The notes: generated from the letters alone by a model not told the origin. 64,000 nucleotides of DNA from an uncultured delta proteobacterium (GCA_963798485.1 CAWCTR010000001.1:27453-91452), one strand, 5' to 3'. Shown: positions 11,957 through 61,597, numbered from the stretch's first letter. Translations and numbers: made by a program.

Positions 11957-12390
11957 GTCCCCTCCCCCCTTGCGGGGGAGGGACAGGGAGAGGGGTATGA
12001 ATAAAATTAATCTCCAACGAGCAAGAGATCTGAGAAAACGATCCACAGACGCGGAACGCCTCCTGTGGAAGCACCTCCGCACAAAGAGGATGAACAACCT
12101 GAAATTCAAGCGGCAGCAACCAATCGGTAATTATATTGTGGACTTCATCTGCTTTGAGAAAAGGATCGTTATCGAACTCGACGGCGGGCAGCATGCACTC
12201 CAGAGAGACAAGGACAAGGGGCGCGACTCCTGGCTGGAAGGCCAGGGCTTCCTCATCCTGAGATTCTGGAATAATGATGTCCTCACCAATATCCATGGTG
12301 TCATGGAGGTTATCATACGTACTTGTTCTGAAGCCCATAGCCTTTAATCTGCCCCCTCTCCCTGTCCCTCCCCCTTGCGGGGGAGGGGAC
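11957..12390. mobile_element. DUF559 nuclease gene enclosed by ~38-bp inverted palindromic arms (family A, gene-carrying form)
   Basis: 11957-11995 GTCCCCTCCCCCCTTGCGGGGGAGGGACAGGGAGAGGGG is the reverse complement of 12352-12390 except for the loop. The arms abut the start and stop codons, and the unit separates recB from recD. Confidence 0.7.
11997..12347 (+). CDS. DUF559 / Vsr-like endonuclease domain protein
   Basis: RARDLRKRSTDAERLLW, KFKRQQPIGNYIVDF, IELDGGQH, RDSWL and LRFWNNDV motifs. Confidence 0.93.
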   Translation: MNKINLQRARDLRKRSTDAERLLWKHLRTKRMNNLKFKRQQPIGNYIVDFICFEKRIVIELDGGQHALQRDKDKGRDSWLEGQGFLILRFWNNDVLTNIHGVMEVIIRTCSEAHSL

Positions 12391-53724: not shown

Positions 53725-55581
53725 ATGTCTCAACCACAAGACTACGAACAGGCCATAAAGGAAATCGAGACACTGAGGCAGCGGGTCTATGAGCTTGAGG
53801 CCTCGGAAACCCGGCTGAAACAGACCGAGGACGAATTACAGGCCTCGGAGAAGAAATACCGGACCATCTTTGAGAACACCGGGGCCGCCACCATCCTCAT
53901 CGAGGCGGATACGCTCATCACCATGGCGAATACGGAGTTCGAAAAGCTCACGGGCTTTTCCCGCGAGGACATCGAGGGCAAGATGTCCTGGGTCAGTTTC
54001 ATCCATAATGATGACAGGCCGCGGATGGTGGACTACCACAACCTACGCCGCGTCAATCCCGCATTGGCCCCCAGAAACTACGAATGCCGGTTCATCAACA
54101 GGGCCGGAAAGATACTCTCCTGCTACCTTACGGTTGCGGTCCTCCCCGGAACAACCCGGAGCATAGCGTCGTTCCTTGACATCACCGATATGCGTGAGGC
54201 GGAAAAAGCCCTGAAGGCCCAGGAAGAACAATATCGCCTGCTCGTGGAAACCATGAACGACGGCATCGGTGTGCAGGATGCCGCCGGTGTCATCACCTAT
54301 GTGAACGACCGTGTCTGCGAGATGCTCGGCTATACCCGTGATGAGATGATCGGCAGGCAGACCTCCGAACTTCTCAATGAGGCGTCAAAGGGCGTATGGG
54401 CTTCTGAGATGGCCAAGCGGAAGGTCAACCAGTATGAACCGTATGAGGTGGCCTGGCAGAACCGCGATGGCGAGCTCATCCACACCATCGTATCCCCCAT
54501 GCCGCTCCATGACGCCGACAGGAACTTTACCGGCAGCTTCGCGGTGTTCACCGACATCACAAGCCGGAAAAAGGCGGAAGAGGACCTGAGGCTCTCGGAA
54601 GAGAAGTTCGCCAAGGCCTTCCGGTCGAGCCCGGATGCCGTCACTATCACCACCCTGAAAGAAGGGCGCTTCTTGGACGTCAACGAAGGATTCCTCAAGA
54701 TCACGGGCTATGACCGCAGCGAGGTGATAGACCACACGTCCATAGAATTGGGCATCTGGCCGTCGCCTGAGTTCCGCCAAGACATCATGGACCAAGTGGC
54801 GGCCAAAGGCGGCATCAGTAATCTCGAGGTCGAGTTCCGCATCAAGTCAGGCGAGCTCCGCAAGATCGTCTATGCCGCCGAGTCGATTGATCTCCAGGGT
54901 CGGCCGTGCCTCATCTCCATCTTCACCGATGTCACGGGGCAGCGCAGGCTAGAGCGCGAGATCCTTGATGTGGGCGAGCGCGAGCGGCAGAAGATCGGCC
55001 AGGACCTGCACGACGACCTCCAGCAGCACCTCATCGGCATCGAGGCCCTTGCCCTGCTGCTGGAAAACCGCCTGGAGCTGGTCTCAAAGCCCAATGCCTC
55101 TCTCGCGCATGACATGGTCGCGCTTATCCGCGAGGCCATTGCCAAGACCCGGACCATTGCGCGAGGCCTGAGCCCGGTATACATAGACGAGGCCGCCCTG
55201 TTCACTGCCATACGGGACCTTACCAAACAGATCGAGTCCATCTTCGGCGTCTCCTTCCAACTGGATGTGAGCAAGGCGGCCCATGTGAAAGACAACGCAA
55301 CCGCGGTGCACCTCTTCCGCATCATCCAGGAGGCGCTGAACAATGCGGTGCGCCACGGCAAGGCCAGGCACATCGCCATCACTCTCAAGCCGAAGAAAGG
55401 CTCGATCATGCTCAGCATTGCCGATGACGGCATCGGCCTGCCCGACGAAATCGACCCGAAAAAGGGTCTCGGTATGAGCATCATGCACCACCGAGCGCGC
55501 ATGATCGGGGCCGAGCTGGTAATCAAGAAAAACCCCAAGGGAGGGACCTCTGTCATATGTCAGCTCACTCACGCATCATGA
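53725..55581 (+). CDS. PAS sensor histidine kinase (3 PAS, HisKA_3)
   Basis: ERQKIGQDLHDDLQQ, QEALNNAVRH, DDGIG and GLGMSIM motifs. Confidence 0.95.
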   Translation: MSQPQDYEQAIKEIETLRQRVYELEASETRLKQTEDELQASEKKYRTIFENTGAATILIEADTLITMANTEFEKLTGFSREDIEGKMSWVSFIHNDDRPRMVDYHNLRRVNPALAPRNYECRFINRAGKILSCYLTVAVLPGTTRSIASFLDITDMREAEKALKAQEEQYRLLVETMNDGIGVQDAAGVITYVNDRVCEMLGYTRDEMIGRQTSELLNEASKGVWASEMAKRKVNQYEPYEVAWQNRDGELIHTIVSPMPLHDADRNFTGSFAVFTDITSRKKAEEDLRLSEEKFAKAFRSSPDAVTITTLKEGRFLDVNEGFLKITGYDRSEVIDHTSIELGIWPSPEFRQDIMDQVAAKGGISNLEVEFRIKSGELRKIVYAAESIDLQGRPCLISIFTDVTGQRRLEREILDVGERERQKIGQDLHDDLQQHLIGIEALALLLENRLELVSKPNASLAHDMVALIREAIAKTRTIARGLSPVYIDEAALFTAIRDLTKQIESIFGVSFQLDVSKAAHVKDNATAVHLFRIIQEALNNAVRHGKARHIAITLKPKKGSIMLSIADDGIGLPDEIDPKKGLGMSIMHHRARMIGAELVIKKNPKGGTSVICQLTHAS

Positions 55582-56213
55582 TCGTCGACGATCACCCCAT
55601 CTTCCGCAAGGGCCTTGCACAGCTCATAGGCGAGGAGCCGGACATGGAGGTGTTAGGCGAGGCCGAGGATGTCCCCGATGCCAAGAGACTCTTCGAGAAG
55701 CTCAAGCCGGACATGGTGATTGTGGACCTCTCCCTGAAAGGGGCGAGCGGCCTCGAGCTCATAAAATACATCCATGAGCTCTCACCTGGCCTGCCCGTGC
55801 TGGTCATCTCCATGCATGACGAGCAGGTATATGCCGAACGGGCGCTGAAGGCCGGTGCCAGGGGCTATATCATGAAGCAGGAGATGACGGGCAAGGTCGT
55901 TACGGCCATCCGTCAGGTGCTGAACGGCAAGATGTTCTTCAGTGAAGACATCGTGGATTCCATCCTGGGCCGTGTCGCAGTAGCCTCCACTGCCGTCCAT
56001 AAAGACCCGGTGTCCACCCTGTCGGACCGGGAGCTGGAGGTATTCACCTTCATCGGACACGGCATGGGCAGGAAAGAGATGGCATCTGCCCTGAACGTGA
56101 GCATCAAGACCATCGGCACCTATAGGGAGAAGATCAAGGAGAAGCTTAACATCAGAAGCTCGCCGGAGCTGGCAAAACGCGCCGTGGAATGGGTGCAGTC
56201 GCAGGGGGGATGA
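55557..56213 (+). CDS. NarL/LuxR family response regulator
   Basis: IVDDHP, VDLSL, GARGYIMK and LSDRELEV..SIKTIGTYR motifs. Confidence 0.95.
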   Translation: MSAHSRIMIVDDHPIFRKGLAQLIGEEPDMEVLGEAEDVPDAKRLFEKLKPDMVIVDLSLKGASGLELIKYIHELSPGLPVLVISMHDEQVYAERALKAGARGYIMKQEMTGKVVTAIRQVLNGKMFFSEDIVDSILGRVAVASTAVHKDPVSTLSDRELEVFTFIGHGMGRKEMASALNVSIKTIGTYREKIKEKLNIRSSPELAKRAVEWVQSQGG

Positions 56214-56214
56214 A

Positions 56215-56927
56215 GAGACCGCCACGTCGGGCTTTCAGCGCTCCTCGCGATGACCTGACTTTGTCATTGCAAGGAACAGAAAGACGACTCGGAAAACCAT
56301 CTAAAGAACTTGCAAGCATTCGTTCTGAGATAGCTACGGTGCATGAAATATACGCCTTACGATGATTGATAAAGGGTCATTGCGAGGAGCCGAAGGCGAC
56401 GTGGCAATCTTACCTTCAGTGTAGTTATGAACAAACAATATTATATTTATATCATGACCAATAAGAACAACACATGCCTGTATACAGGGGTGACAAACGA
56501 CCTCAAGAGGCGTGTCTATGAACACAGGAATAAATTGGTGGAAGGATTTACGAAGAAATACAACATAACAAAACTGGTGTATTATGAGATATGCGATGAC
56601 CCTTACAATGCCATATCGAGGGAAAAACAGATCAAGAAAGGATCGAGGAAGAAAAAAGACGACTTGATTACAACGATGAATAGTGAGTGGAATGATCTGT
56701 ATGAGGGGATACTTTAGATTGCCACGCCCCCTACCGGGGCTCGCAATGACCGGCTAATAACATCGCACATATAAGAAGCTACCATCATAAATTTAATGAT
56801 GTGCACTACCTGAGATCGCCACGTCGCGCTTTCAGCGCTCCTCGCGATGACAAATTCAGGGTCATTGCGAGGACATAATAGGGGTCATTGCGAGGAGGCA
56901 ACCGTTGGTTGCCGACGTGGCAATCTC
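56215..56927. mobile_element. Family B repeat cluster centred on a GIY-YIG gene (gene-carrying form 56376-56750)
   Basis: Left arm GTCATTGCGAGGAGCCGAAGGCGACGTGGCAATCT; right arm AGATTGCCACG...CTCGCAATGAC overlaps the stop codon; further arms at 56215, 56263, 56812, 56861 and 56884. Confidence 0.75.
56427..56717 (+). CDS. Stand-alone GIY-YIG nuclease
   Basis: YYIYIMTN..LYTGVTNDLKRRVYEH..FTKKYNITKLVYYE..AISREKQIK. Confidence 0.95.
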   Translation: MNKQYYIYIMTNKNNTCLYTGVTNDLKRRVYEHRNKLVEGFTKKYNITKLVYYEICDDPYNAISREKQIKKGSRKKKDDLITTMNSEWNDLYEGIL

Positions 56928-57106
56928 GTTTTAAGACACATTCCTTTTATATATCTCTAAGAATCTCTGAGGTCTTTTGCCTATAGGCATTCTACCTACC
57001 CTACCCGCCTCATTAAACGCACCCGACATTCAGCCCTGTGCCGATTTTTAAATGAAGCCGCCTGCCGTATAGACATACATGAAAGCGAATCTTAAGGAGG
57101 TGGCCC

Positions 57107-58447
57107 ATGAACCACAAGGAAGAGTATGAAAGGAAGCTCGCAAACGCCGAGGATGCCGTACGCGTGGTGAAGTCCGGTGATTGGGTCGACTACGGCCATT
57201 TTACCTGTGCGCCCACGTATCTTGATGCGGCGCTTGCCAGGAGGGCCGCTGAGCTCCGCGATGTCAAGGTCCGTGCGCTCACCTTCCCGGGAATGGCGGC
57301 CATCGCGACAGCAGACCCGGGGCAGGACCACTTCACCTACAACAACTGGCACTTCAGCGGCGGCGACCGCTCGCTGCACGACAAGGGTCTGTGCAACTAC
57401 ATCCCGTTGCTCTACCACGAGGGCCCTTCCCTTTACAGCATCATCGATACGGACGTCTTCATGGTCAAGGTGGCGCCCATGGACAAAGACGGCTTTTTCA
57501 ACTTCGGCCCTTCCAACTCCATCTCGAAGCATATCGCAGACCGTGCAAAGACCGTCATCGTTGAGGTGAACACGAATGTGCCCTACTGCTACGGCGGCAG
57601 GAACGAGTCCATCCACATCTCCAAGGTGGACTATATCGTAGAGTCCGACAACAGGCCCCTGTTCTGTGTGAGCGAGCCAAAGATCAGCGATGTGGACAGG
57701 AAGATCGCATCGCTCATCGTGGAAGAAATCCCTGACGGCGGCTGCCTGCAGCTGGGCATCGGCGCCATGCCCAATGCAGTGGGCAAGCTGATCGCGCAGA
57801 GCGACCTCAAGGATTTGGGCGTGCATACCGAGATGCTCGTAGATTCCTACGTTGACATGTATATGGCAGGCCGCGTCACCAACATGAAAAAGCATGCGGA
57901 CAAGGGCAAGATGGTCTACACCTTTGCGCTGGGCAGCCAGAAGCTCTATGACTTCATCGACCAGAACCGCTGCTGCGCCTCCTATTCGGTGGACTACACG
58001 AACAACCCCGAGAACATCAGGGCCAACGACAACACCATTGCCATCAACAATGCCGTGGAGGTCGACCTCTTCTGCCAGGTGTCTTCCGAATCCTCGGGCA
58101 CGCGCCAGATCTCCGGCACGGGCGGCCAGTTCGACTTCGTGTTCGGGGCCTTCCACTCTAAGGGCGGCAAGTCCATCATCTGCCTGACCTCAACCACCAA
58201 GGACAAGAACGGCGCGGTGAAATCACGCATCCGCCCAATGCTCGAGCCCGGCTCCATCGTGACCGTGCCCCGCACCATCGTGCACTACGTGGTGACCGAA
58301 TACGGCAAGGCCATGCTCAAGGGCAAGAGCACCTGGGAGCGGGCCGAGGCGCTCATCAACATCGCCCACCCCGACTTCCACGACGAGCTCGTCTGTGAGG
58401 CCGAGAGGATGGGCATCTGGAGAAGGTCCAACCGTCTGGCCGCATAA
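57107..58447 (+). CDS. Acetyl-CoA hydrolase/transferase family (butyrate/4-hydroxybutyrate CoA-transferase-like)
   Basis: LQLGIGAMPNA, LGVHTEM, SGTGGQFDF, VVTEYG and IAHPDF motifs. Confidence 0.95.
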   Translation: MNHKEEYERKLANAEDAVRVVKSGDWVDYGHFTCAPTYLDAALARRAAELRDVKVRALTFPGMAAIATADPGQDHFTYNNWHFSGGDRSLHDKGLCNYIPLLYHEGPSLYSIIDTDVFMVKVAPMDKDGFFNFGPSNSISKHIADRAKTVIVEVNTNVPYCYGGRNESIHISKVDYIVESDNRPLFCVSEPKISDVDRKIASLIVEEIPDGGCLQLGIGAMPNAVGKLIAQSDLKDLGVHTEMLVDSYVDMYMAGRVTNMKKHADKGKMVYTFALGSQKLYDFIDQNRCCASYSVDYTNNPENIRANDNTIAINNAVEVDLFCQVSSESSGTRQISGTGGQFDFVFGAFHSKGGKSIICLTSTTKDKNGAVKSRIRPMLEPGSIVTVPRTIVHYVVTEYGKAMLKGKSTWERAEALINIAHPDFHDELVCEAERMGIWRRSNRLAA

Positions 58448-58457
58448 TGTTACCCGA

Positions 58458-58870
58458 TTATTGCGAGGAGCCACAACGGGTTTCACCCCTGTGGCTCCTT
58501 GAAATAAACTTGGCATAGACCCTGTTTATTCAAGTCCCCCTCCTTTCTAAGGAGGGGACAGGGGAGATTTGTTTTTATATGTGTCATTCCCGCGGAGGCG
58601 GGAATCCAGTCTTTTCAAGAACCTCTGGACCCCCGCCTTCGCGGGAGAGACACCTTTTTTGAGTTATCATCTACAGGAACAGTCACGACTGCTCCCTACA
58701 AAAATCTCCCCCCTACCCGCTTTTTTCCAAAGGCAGGAACCTGCCAATAACCCTATGTCGGTCATTGCGAGCGTAAGCGAAGCAATCCCTGCATCTTGGC
58801 ACAGTATACAGATTGCCACGCCGCCTTCGGCTCCTCGCAATGACCGATGGTTAGGTTATGCAAAGGTCTC
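58458..58870. repeat. Intergenic mosaic of family A, C, E and B palindromes
   Basis: A arms at 58534-58570 and 58701-58736; C unit at 58583-58651; GTAG-type arm at 58672-58699; B unit at 58761-58844 with outer GGTTATGCAAAGGTCTC. Confidence 0.85.
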
Positions 58871-58945
58871 GAAGTTTTATCATTCAGTTTCCTGAAGACA
58901 CATCGACTGATTTGAAATATACCTTTGTGATTACGGAGGAAGACC

Positions 58946-59950
58946 ATGACCAGGAGTGCCGATTTCGCACACCTCACACCCGAGGTGTTGCTCGATGTGA
59001 TCGAGGATGCCACAGGCGTCCCCATGACCGGGCTCACCATGCCGCTGCCCAGCTATATCAACCGGGTCTACGAGCTTCAGAGCAAGGCGGGAGAACGCCT
59101 CATCGCCAAGTTCTACCGGCCCGGGCGCTGGAGCAAAGAGGCCCTTGAGGACGAACACCAATTCCTGGCCGACTGCGCGGGAGACGAGATACCCGTGGTA
59201 TGCCCCCTGAAGCTGGCCGACCACAGCACCCTGGGAAAGACCGGCAGCACCTTTTTCGCCCTGTTCCCCAAAAAGGCCGGCCGCGCCTTCGAGCTGAACA
59301 ACGATGAAGACTGGACGCGTGTGGGCACGCTTATCGGGCGCATCCACCTCGCGGGCGAGCGGCGCACCCCGCAGGACAGGATCACCTTGCACCCGCTTAA
59401 GTCCACCCGGGACGACCTGGATTACCTCATCAAAGGCGGGTTCGTCACCCCCGAGCACAAGAGAGCCTTTACGGACCTGACATCCAGCATCGTCGAGGGC
59501 ATATCCGGCCTCTTTGAAGGCACCGAGCTGATCCGCATCCATGGGGACTGCCACCGGGGCAACCTCCTTGAACGCCCGGGCGAAGGCCTGATGGTGATCG
59601 ATTTCGACGATATGATGACAGGCCCCCCTGTCCACGACCTCTGGCTGCTCCTGCCAAACCACGCGGGCCATTCGCGCCGCGAGATCGACCTTCTGCTCGA
59701 AGGCTATGAGCAGTTCCGCGAATTCGACCACTCGTCCGTCCTCCTCATAGAGCCCTTACGGTTCATGCGCATCGTCTATTTCCTGGCCTGGTGGGCCAGG
59801 CAGGCAGACGATTACGACTTCAGGAACAACCACCCCGACTGGGGCACCGACGCCTTCTGGAACAAGGAGATCCTGGACCTTAACCACCAGTTCCAGGTCA
59901 TCATGGAGCACAAGGTGGCATGGGAGGAAGGCAGGTTCTTCGGGGGGTGA
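58946..59950 (+). CDS. srkA: Stress response Ser/Thr kinase SrkA/RdoA
   Basis: SYINRVY, IAKFYRPGRWS, RIHGDCHRGN, DFDD and IEPLRFMR motifs. Confidence 0.93.
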   Translation: MTRSADFAHLTPEVLLDVIEDATGVPMTGLTMPLPSYINRVYELQSKAGERLIAKFYRPGRWSKEALEDEHQFLADCAGDEIPVVCPLKLADHSTLGKTGSTFFALFPKKAGRAFELNNDEDWTRVGTLIGRIHLAGERRTPQDRITLHPLKSTRDDLDYLIKGGFVTPEHKRAFTDLTSSIVEGISGLFEGTELIRIHGDCHRGNLLERPGEGLMVIDFDDMMTGPPVHDLWLLLPNHAGHSRREIDLLLEGYEQFREFDHSSVLLIEPLRFMRIVYFLAWWARQADDYDFRNNHPDWGTDAFWNKEILDLNHQFQVIMEHKVAWEEGRFFGG

Positions 59951-60019
59951 AGTCTTCTTTTAGGTTCTTCACTGTGAAGCATACTTTATGATTTACATTC
60001 TTTTCCCAGCTGTTGTTTC

Positions 60020-60274
60020 CACCACGAAGGACACGAAGAAAGGAAATTTATTGAATTAGCGGACCAGTTCAAAGAATCCAAGAGTGAGGCATTTACATAA
60101 CCCCATATCAGTCATTGCGAGCGTAGCGAAGCAATCCCTGCATCTTGGCAGTGCCTGGTTTTTTGAGATTGCCACGTCGCCTTCGGCTCCTCGCAATGAC
60201 CGATGAGTAGATTATGTAAAGGTCTCAGAGTGTTTGTTCTGCATATTTAGATCTTCTTCGTGCTCTTCGTGGTG
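60020..60274. repeat. Three-layer nested inverted repeats (family D > TIR-like > family B)
   Basis: CACCACGAAGGACACGAAG / CTTCGTGCTCTTCGTGGTG enclose GAGGCATTTACATAA / TTATGTAAAGGTCTC, which enclose the B unit at 60111-60200. Confidence 0.85.
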
Positions 60275-60302
60275 AGTCATCTCTTTGTGTGCTCCCATCT
60301 TC

Positions 60303-61597
60303 TCACCTTGCGGCCATCTTATGCAGGAGCCGCTTCATGCGGTGCTCCAGGGATTGGCGTTCCACCACGCCCAGATGCCGGGCTTCATCGAGGATCCTGC
60401 GTACGAGCTCCATTGCCATACCGAATTCCCGGGCGTGGTGCTCATACCATTTGGCGAGCTCTTCGGCGGCAAATACGTCATGCGGGTGCATGGCGATGAT
60501 GTCCTTCCAGAGGCTGACCGCCTCTTCCCACTGTAACGCCCTTTTGTGGATGAGCGAGAGCGATTTCCGCGCGTTCAGCGCTATGTCCGGCTGTGAACAC
60601 CCTTTGAGCGGCTCGAGCATCCGCCTGGCCGCTGCAAGGTCGCCCCGGTCGTGGTGGAGCCGCGCCGCGCACAGGAGGTCGCCGGGATGAGCGTCCGGCA
60701 TTTCATTGCCGCCCTCTACGAGACCGGCCAGGTGTTTTAAAAGCGCTGCCATGGACACGATGTCCAGCCGGTTGTGGCGGAACACTGCATCCATCAGCCT
60801 GCCGTCGCGCCTTTTGAGCCAGTCGAAATAGCGCTGGGGTATCTCATAGCCCGGCACGTCGTCTTCGCGCCTGACGCCGAGCACATGGGCCTCGATGGTC
60901 ACAAGCCTGGCGTTCTCCAGCCGGTGCGCAAGCATCCTCCTGCTCGGGTGCAGCAGGTCGATGTGGGGCATGCCGAAGAGCACGTCTTGTGAACGGTTGA
61001 GGATATACCGGCTGGAAAGCAGGTTCAAGTCATAGGCGCGTCCGTTGAAGGTCACCAGGAACTTCTTTGTTGCTGCCAGATCGCCCAGGAATGCAAGCAT
61101 GGCACTCTCTTCGGAGAAGTCGCGGGCAAAGAGTTGGCTTGTCACGAATGATCCATTTTCAAACCACCCGAGCCCGATGAGGAAGGGGAACGTGCCGGTG
61201 CCCCCTGCCAAGCCGGTGGTCTCGGTGTCGAGGAACAGGCCGTCTTCCAGCGAGAAGCCGCTGAGCGCCTGGGAACCTGCAAGGAAGGCCGCTGTGTCCA
61301 TGCTCAAACAGGCAAGGTCGCTCACCCGCGAATGACCGTGGAAATCCGATCCTGCCAAGGTACTGCGGGAACAGAAAAACCTGCCGTGCTCGGTTTCCAC
61401 TTCCTCGCCTGCAACCACGCGCTCCAGGAGAACCGCTGCGCTTCTCGGCTGAGGCACAACCGCCGGGGCGATATGCTCCCTCCGGTTCATGACCTCTTCG
61501 ATCCGCTTGCGCAGCTCGCTTATCCGTTCCTGTTTGGGATCAGTCTGAACAGGCTTCGGACCCTCTCCGGTGAGGCGGTTTATCCGGTCTTTGAGGC

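Follow-up and report, generated by a model that had tools for sequence, protein, structure and literature searches.

A probable Ssn-type single-stranded DNA endonuclease gene in an uncultured deltaproteobacterium, enclosed by a longer subtype of the Ssn-related hairpin repeat

Why should the gene for a very small nuclease stand between two inverted hairpin repeats whose copies occur all over the same genome? The question is raised by a 64,000-nt stretch of DNA from an uncultured delta proteobacterium (GCA_963798485.1, CAWCTR010000001.1:27453-91452; hereafter the window), part of a 4.30-Mb, 32-contig assembly (G000). Here, an 890-bp intergenic region bounded by the stop of a 218-aa open reading frame (ORF) and the start of a 446-aa ORF is packed with copies (arms) of one hairpin repeat, which we call type B, and two of these arms enclose a gene for a 96-aa GIY-YIG protein. 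A model-generated annotation of this stretch, the sequence-only reading, had proposed that the gene and the palindrome form a cognate pair, one instance of a general class of mini-nuclease elements. Our comparisons indicate that the gene probably encodes an Ssn-type endonuclease of single-stranded DNA (ssDNA) and that the arms are its cognate hairpin repeats, a reading that we hold at a probability of roughly 0.87.

The protein, which begins at an ATG, matches the GIY-YIG model PF01541 over residues 4–76 (E 1.4e-18, 67.3 bits), and a domain search of its 96 residues returned nothing besides PF01541. Residues Y8, Y19, G21, R29, H33, E65 and N85, which we take to be the GIY-YIG catalytic set, are each conserved in at least 90% of 133 aligned homologues. 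The two enclosing arms are 36 nt long, 81% complementary and 305 nt apart, and the TAG stop of the gene (56715–56717) overlaps the first bases of the right arm; further out, a 40-nt arm is repeated directly on both sides of the unit with 2 mismatches (95% identity). Every element described in the sequence-only reading is present, namely the ORF, the arms, the stop overlap, the 40-nt direct repeat, the extra arms and the gene-less doublets in which two arms stand head to head. The core GTCATTGCGAG, allowing up to one mismatch, occurs 14 times in the window, whereas 100 shuffles gave 1.5 occurrences on average and at most 4, and its exact form is found 28 times in the 4.30-Mb genome where about 2 copies are expected, which excludes chance. 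An Rfam scan of positions 55500–61000 (E ≤ 1) left the arms unmatched and returned a single chance miRNA match. Contigs from four metagenome runs cover small shares of the window, the uncovered parts being uninformative; many of them match just one arm, including some that match just 56376–56410 in the left arm, with loose ends at 56376, 56409–56411, 56716 and 56750.

The arms accompany the gene far beyond this genome. A scan of one genome per species yielded 567 relatives among 600 candidate stretches, and the best 80 (66–77% identity) were used, with hosts in the Cyanobacteria, Chloroflexota, Planctomycetota, Nitrospirota, Thermodesulfobacteriota/'Deltaproteobacteria', Ignavibacteria, Omnitrophota and Elusimicrobia as well as one genome of the candidate phyla radiation. 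Four of these loci, with less than 150 nt on one side or the other, were dropped, and linkage was counted in the remaining 76. Within 150 nt of the gene, on any side or strand, the 10-mer core GTCATTGCGA was found in 74 of these 76 loci; the sequence-only reading had staked its cognate pair on close homologues keeping the arms, and they do. The exact 11-mer core was present on the left in 47, on the right in 40 and on both sides in 33 of the 76, and the 10-mer core on the left in 50, on the right in 54 and on both sides, inverted, in 38. Across all 80 loci the orientation was constant, with the left arm on the plus strand upstream and the right arm on the minus strand downstream: 37 exact cores lay on the tag strand within 100 nt upstream and 36 on the reverse strand in the first 50 nt downstream, and only 7 were located more than 500 nt from the gene in 143.5 kb.

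This constant arrangement contradicts the least probable of the alternatives that we considered, namely that the arms are ordinary regulatory hairpins (terminators or mRNA stabilisers) resembling repetitive extragenic palindromes (REPs) that stand by chance near a housekeeping nuclease gene: the arms are intergenic, one of them scores as terminator-like (56907–56925) and REP-type repeats do have such roles (Di Nocera et al. 2013, PMC3733652, as far as its accessible text goes), but with the core flanking the gene in nearly every locus in many phyla and the repeat type switching with the protein clade, as described below, we give this explanation next to no credence.

A nuclease of this design is known from Neisseria. 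According to the accessible text of Chenal et al. (Nat Commun 2025, 16:2388, PMC11893778), SsnA of N. meningitidis is a 94-aa single-domain GIY-YIG protein (CDD cd10448) that binds the NTS hairpin CGTCATTCCCGCGMAVGCGGGAATCYRG only as ssDNA and cuts a few bases upstream of it, cleavage being governed chiefly by the three bases that precede the palindrome and binding most of all by the C that follows. The same text gives the gene order NTS-ssnA-NTS in Neisseria, reports that three further homologues cut their own motifs and that the tested homologues do not cleave double-stranded DNA (dsDNA), and finds at least one Ssn-related motif (SRM) at 71% of homologue loci, SRMs on both sides at 42%, and an Ssn homologue in 137 of 169 genomes with more than 200 SRMs (PMC11893778). 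The pairing of a GIY-YIG nuclease with a palindrome is thus not novel, being already described as the Ssn/SRM system (Chenal et al. 2025).

Several lines of evidence place the window gene in this family. The published homology criterion is a tblastn E value below 1e-10 (PMC11893778, in the text available), and the window protein matches a 95-aa frame in a Neisseria oralis genome, against which, rather than N. meningitidis NMV_0044, the homology was scored, with E 3.7e-21 and 44% identity over residues 4–93; this frame has NTS on both sides. The size (96 aa compared with about 94 aa) and the single GIY-YIG domain agree with an Ssn protein, as do the inverted, dispersed hairpin repeats on both sides of the gene. 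Homologues of the window protein at 45–56% identity in related genomes carry another hairpin, GTCATTCCCGCG...GGGAATCC, their flanks reading GTCATTCCCGCGAAxGCGGGAATCCAG or near variants and in one case GTCATTTCGAACGAAG...GAGAAATC; this hairpin is the published NTS consensus, which the upstream hairpins of two distant homologue loci (L089 and L092) fit. GIY-YIG frames at 33% identity or less showed no such arms in their flanks.

The arms themselves carry the signature of Ssn sites. Window arms fold as ssDNA into a stem of ATTGC and GCAAT with GTC unpaired on its 5' side; the right arm of the unit reaches -9.1 kcal/mol (z -2.0), the arm with the inner hairpin at 56884–56927 -11.0 kcal/mol (z -2.7), and the doublet at 58761–58844, folded as 58751–58854, forms one long hairpin of -24.3 kcal/mol (z -4.4). 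The general architecture of a B arm is GTC, ATTGCGAG, a variable inner stem-loop, GCAAT and C. In 286 arms of the 80 homologue loci, tallied with ATTGCGA...GCAAT alone as the anchor and not the flanking bases, the three bases before the palindrome are G in 97%, T in 98% and C in 98%, and the base after it is C in 93%, while positions upstream of GTC are variable. Since the GTC and the C kept in B arms are the positions critical in Chenal et al. 2025, they constitute a functional signature of Ssn sites, and it is this signature, together with the N. oralis match and the NTS-flanked distant homologues, for which we file the window gene in the Ssn family.

We then compared the window-type set with a second set, consisting of the 80 best relatives of one NTS-armed protein, 76 of which have sufficient flanks. 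Near the gene, GTCATTCC was found in 52/76 loci of the NTS-type set compared with 3/76 of the window-type set, whereas the B core was found in 2/76 and 74/76, respectively. In a FastTree phylogeny of 133 proteins (160 loci plus the window, minus 28 rows with a stop in frame, fewer than 80 aa or running off the locus end), the B/C repeat label changes 3 times, whereas 200 shuffles of the labels required 32.2 changes on average and never fewer than 25, the two sets having been picked by similarity to two queries and kin sharing labels. This shows that the repeat type follows the protein clade, the partition by repeat family that the sequence-only reading had suggested looking for, and the tree yields no rate of co-evolution. 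Seven positions are fixed differently, at 80% or more in each group, in B-arm and NTS-arm proteins: 10 (M/L), 17 (V/T), 28 (R/Q), 31 (Y/W), 32 (E/Q), 72 (G/W) and 76 (K/W); speculatively, these are candidate determinants of specificity.

One further locus (L280, G048:C30:3559-6840) encodes a 52%-identical homologue with intermediate arms, CGTCATTGCGAC...GCAATCCAG and CGTCATCACGAG...GTGATCCAG, which combine a B stem with the tag (CGTC) and tail (CCAG) known from NTS; the second of them resembles the variant arms on either side of the window unit.

By homology with the characterised enzymes, the system would act when DNA becomes single-stranded in replication, repair, uptake or transfer and an arm can fold into its hairpin. 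The Ssn-type protein would then bind the palindrome and the following C and nick the tag-bearing strand a few bases 5' of GTC, leaving dsDNA and RNA uncut. Because the arms stand head to head, a nick is predicted on each strand, one at either outer border of a unit or a doublet. Candidate roles in the host, drawn by analogy, are that repeat-bearing ssDNA is restricted on entry, as in Neisseria, and/or that the repeat itself is spread or maintained.

A number of results weigh against the assignment to Ssn. The enzymes that have been assayed are the four homologues in the Ssn paper, none of which belongs to the window clade, and the repeats used with them are of other subtypes. An NCBIfam scan of the 96-aa protein gave no model above cut-off, and the nearest structures in a PDB sequence search were UPF0213 proteins, at a weak E value of 5.4e-5. 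A promoter and terminator scan found no promoter-like site upstream of the gene. Folding of single arms exceeds that of shuffled sequence by a modest margin (z -1.0 to -2.7), and in one variant arm not at all (z +1.1). The published SRM search pattern, HGTCWYN(0-2)YYVSBRHN(0-5)WNVSBRGN(0-2)RNCYNB, which is a search device and not a definition of the family, has no match in 56200–56940 and none in any of the 76 window-type loci. Repeats also abound where the gene is missing: among 40 relatives, one genome that is 100% complete (G031) has 300 cores and at least 26 doublets with only a 631-aa PF01541 frame, and another that is 99% complete (G029) has 88 cores with PF01541 frames only above 600 aa. 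These long frames are presumably UvrC, judged by their size. Likewise, 7 of the 19 B-rich genomes in a sample of the phylum are without a homologue.

This phylum sample consisted of 150 evenly drawn genomes of at least 90% completeness, 36 of which have a homologue at E ≤ 1e-10. By hand tally, a homologue occurs in 12 of the 19 genomes with at least 20 B cores compared with 24 of the 131 with fewer, counts in which kin are not independent and metagenome-assembled genomes often lose repeats and mobile genes. The association of repeat and gene at the genome level is clear and not strict, and the same holds in Chenal et al. 2025. As a case that would speak against the cognate pair, the sequence-only reading had named lineages rich in B repeats that lack the nuclease and track a different enzyme; the first half of this is found in the 7 of 19 genomes, and an unsystematic look turned up no other enzyme that the repeat tracks. 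In G029 (for example C21:20552-21127), B cores also occur in same-orientation arrays with an 82-bp period, which are tandem-arm forms and not doublets.

The published pattern matches 43/76 loci of the NTS-type set and none of the window type, and the window repeat is a longer subtype of the Ssn-related hairpin that the pattern misses. For this reason published counts of repeat-bearing genomes miss carriers of the B subtype. Supplementary Data 4 of the Ssn paper, which lists homologues per genome and not per gene, gives a cd10448 homologue for Calothrix parasitica NIES-267 and 17 SRMs compared with 13.09 in shuffled sequence, a 1.30-fold enrichment (PMC11893778, in the part available). In the same genome, where locus L043 holds a 74%-identical homologue of the window protein, we counted 137 B cores compared with 7 of a reversed control.

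By tblastn, the host genome has one copy of the nuclease gene. Three further open frames there, of 103, 587 and 198 aa, match PF01541; a tblastn search with the window protein did not return the 103-aa frame at E ≤ 1. Doublets that lack a gene and have an exact core in both arms number 8 (84–92 bp), or 10 when each core may hold one mismatch; they pair two arm subtypes as heterodimers, and both their spacer and some 10 bases flanking each arm on the outside are conserved among them. The loaded unit consists of left arm, gene and right arm, and its left arm recurs at 100% identity over 36–37 nt at several other sites of the genome. Its right arm is of another subtype than the second arm of the gene-less doublets, and nothing in the doublet spacers resembles the unit's inner ends. 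The loaded and empty elements, taken by the sequence-only reading as a pair, share their design and arms, and the derivation of one from the other is unsupported; an origin of the gene-less doublets by internal deletion from this loaded copy was rejected, as neither spacer nor second arm agrees with it. A stretch of 502 bp outside the window, between two B cores in doublet orientation (G000:C5:78601-79102) contains a degenerate inner arm and G/C-run palindromes of the DUF559-associated type described below, with no GIY-YIG gene.

Next, the orthologous site was examined in congeners, 1 of 14 of which has a homologue. The flanking genes lie 155–240 bp apart in G007, G011, G002 and G006, with no such gene between them, compared with at least 769 bp in the window; part of the G011 gap is masked. 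In another congener, G003, the arm array is collinear with that of the window arm by arm, minus a block of about 385–400 bp that comprises the left arm, the gene and the right arm (Table 1). This comparison is a global pairwise alignment to the arm array, as MAFFT had paired two non-orthologous ssn genes. No target-site duplication or exact junction is readable, because the left border may be either the decayed arm or the unit's own arm. G003 itself (L115, G003:C41) has another ssn gene, 55% identical, 5' of the array in the same intergenic region and with NTS-type arms, GTCATTCCCGCGAAGGC... and ...CGCGGGAATGAC, and in G007 (L113) only the last ~30 bases of a G003-type ssn gene and the right arm remain. 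The intergenic site looks like a hotspot for arm-ssn-arm units. Identity to homologues in other phyla (Cyanobacteria, Chloroflexota, Planctomycetota, Nitrospirota) is 73–77%, compared with 73–76% for the best in the sample of the host's own phylum, and a 458-nt wastewater contig covers 56375–56768 with 29 differences. Site differences, patchiness and contigs all fit horizontal spread and turnover of the unit, whether by gain here or by loss in the congeners.

Table 1. Features of the arm-ssn-arm locus, its neighbours and the gene-less doublets, in window coordinates
Feature	Position	Strand	Remarks
Upstream ORF, 218 aa	55557-56213	+	
Variant arm GTCATCGCGAG...GCGGTCTC	56215-56254	-	Directly after the upstream ORF stop; orthologous arm in congener G003
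Decayed arm GTCATTGCAAG...	56263-56301	+	1 mismatch; aligns to a G003 arm
Putative strongly decayed arm	56322-56368	-	Recognised only via the collinear alignment to G003
Left arm, B-type hairpin, tag on plus strand	56375-56410	+	G-GTC-ATTGC...GCAAT-CT; inverted repeat
ssn-type gene, 96-aa single-domain GIY-YIG nuclease	56427-56717	+	ORF call and PF01541
Right arm, B-type hairpin, tag on minus strand	56716-56751	-	Inverted repeat; overlaps the TAG stop
Variant arm	56812-56851	-	Direct repeat of 56215-56254, 95%
Truncated arm	56861-56882	+	Core only
Arm with inner 7-bp hairpin	56884-56927	+	Orthologous arm in G003
Downstream ORF, 446 aa	57107-58447	+	
Gene-less doublet, two arms head to head	12981-13071		
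Gene-less doublet	58761-58844		Long ssDNA hairpin
Gene-less doublet	60111-60200		

These observations bear on an explanation that is compatible with an Ssn-type nuclease, in which arm, gene and arm together are an autonomous mobile element like an insertion sequence (IS), the nuclease serves as 'transposase' and the gene-less doublets are derivatives comparable to REP doublets forming hairpins (REPINs) or to MITEs (miniature inverted-repeat transposable elements). The absence of the unit at the orthologous site of five congeners, with G003 missing just the loaded unit, would be expected of such an element, as would the different ssn gene with NTS-type arms in G003 and its remnant in the same region of G007. 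A distribution as patchy as 1/14 congeners and 36/150 genomes of the phylum, yet with homologues in other phyla that are equally close, points the same way, and so do the wastewater contig spanning the unit and the large doublet populations of some genomes (114 in G028, 65 in G026). The accessible discussion of Chenal et al. raises the same idea, noting an IS-like layout and the analogy with REPs and REP-associated tyrosine transposases (RAYTs), and leaves the role outside Neisseria open (PMC11893778). Against it stand the one gene copy in the host genome, the ambiguous left border, at which neither a target-site duplication nor an exact junction can be read, and an alignment that would fit gain of the unit as well as its loss. 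In spacer sequence the gene-less doublets have nothing in common with the loaded unit, their second arm is a different one, nicks on opposite strands would give no obvious single-strand 'peel and paste' route, and the metagenome contigs of the four runs, contigs being all that was searched, contained no joints or excised forms. GIY-YIG enzymes are not known to join strands. On balance we regard an IS-like element as rather less likely than not.

Far less probable is that a free-standing homing endonuclease gene has invaded an existing repeat, cutting empty doublets and being copied into them by double-strand-break repair via arm homology. GIY-YIG enzymes do include homing endonucleases (PMC11893778, in the text available), the gene sits between arms that are also found without it, and the perfect recurrence of its left arm elsewhere in the genome would supply the homology. 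However, the tested Ssn homologues cut no dsDNA (PMC11893778, same text), the window protein has no DNA-binding domain beyond the catalytic one, and a single doublet is occupied in the host genome while the 8 short doublets with exact cores are empty. Because the occupied doublet has another spacer and another second arm, these empty ones are not its cognate empty sites, and we consider homing very improbable.

The Ssn-type reading of the window gene leaves a second cassette in the same window to be considered, which the sequence-only reading had likened to the first. A DUF559 gene (ORF 11970/11997-12347, plus strand; PF04480, E 2.2e-42) lies between inverted arms of 46 nt (11960-12005 and 12343-12388, 78%) made of a different repeat rich in G/C runs. 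We examined the 80 best homologue loci (49–64% identity, many phyla), 60 of which have at least 120 nt on both sides. An inverted-match score of at least 14 between the flanks was reached in 27/60, compared with 1/60 when the downstream flank was shuffled, direct matches between the flanks being as frequent (28/60). The G/C-run motif GGGAGAGGG occurs in the flanks of 39/80 loci; the likeness in design, a gene between inverted arms with a motif shared across homologues, is borne out. A literature search on the pairing of DUF559 with repeats found no paper.

Taken together, these cassettes allow a wider proposal, which we put forward tentatively and believe to be less than an even bet: arm-ssn-arm units would be self-mobilising, and Ssn nucleases would be the long-missing mobilising enzymes of the whole superfamily of (C)GTC-tagged REPs, including the B subtype with its frequent occurrence in Cyanobacteria, Chloroflexota, Nitrospirota and Thermodesulfobacteriota. 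Doublets without a gene would depend on these enzymes in the manner of REPINs, and the DUF559 cassettes would represent the design a second time, independently and with a nuclease of another fold.

As a find, the locus is unremarkable, adding one further Ssn nuclease and its hairpins to those known. Its repeat is of a subtype, GTC-ATTGCGAG...GCAAT-C, that goes undetected by the published SRM pattern, and it offers a natural pair of enzyme and site with a predicted specificity unlike that of the four assayed pairs, which bears on the proposed use of Ssn enzymes as ssDNA tools. The comparison of orthologous sites adds circumstantial evidence on whether arm-ssn-arm units move, and the occupation of the same intergenic region by a different ssn clade with its own arms, in one congener without the unit, touches the same question.

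Compared with the Ssn/NTS system, the window locus has a similar single-domain GIY-YIG protein of about 95 aa, a gene with inverted hairpin repeats on either side, copies of which are scattered over the genome, a GTC directly 5' and a C directly 3' of the palindrome, and a patchy, cross-phylum distribution in which some repeat-rich genomes lack the gene. Unlike NTS, the B hairpin is longer (~30–36 nt) and imperfect, with a variable inner stem-loop, and its stem starts with ATTGCGAG where that of NTS starts with ATTCCCGC.

A second point of comparison is the CGTC-tagged REPs, described in the accessible text of Di Nocera et al. 2013 (PMC3733652) as four families with an unpaired CGTC or TGTC tag, a stem of 8–9 bp starting with AT, a loop of 4–5 nt and a CCA tail, which are arranged mostly as head-to-head dimers and 'apparently lack a dedicated transposase'; the CGTC-1 family, found in Neisseria, is dRS3/NTS. 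In the Ssn paper, as far as its text is available, 'CGTC' occurs three times, always as a motif string, and Di Nocera et al. 2013 is apparently uncited (PMC11893778). B arms resemble these repeats in their GTC tag, AT-starting stem, short tail and head-to-head dimers; they differ in being longer and imperfect, in having mostly G or A before GTC in the host genome and in a tail of CT or CC in place of CCA. Our literature searches for GIY-YIG together with REP, REPIN, RAYT or MITE found no linking paper, the Ssn paper surfacing via dRS3 and CGTC; searches on COG2827, YhbQ, UPF0213 and PF01541 gave nothing relevant, those on Ssn follow-ups returned only Chenal et al. 2025, and the two 11-mer cores occur in the literature only as unrelated primer strings.

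Finally, the layout recalls the REP/REPIN systems with their RAYT (Bertels & Rainey 2011; Nunvar et al. 2010): a single-copy nuclease gene stands between inverted, tagged hairpin repeats, the genome is dotted with doublets that could form one long hairpin, and the enzyme, here by homology, acts on ssDNA hairpins. The resemblance to such a REPtron is one of layout only, as the protein has a GIY-YIG fold and not the HUH/Y1 fold of IS200/IS605-like RAYTs, and the tag is GTC, not GTAG. While REPIN-RAYT systems are described as passing mostly from parent to offspring, the window-type gene has a patchy distribution, and its homologues in other phyla are almost as close to it as those in its own.

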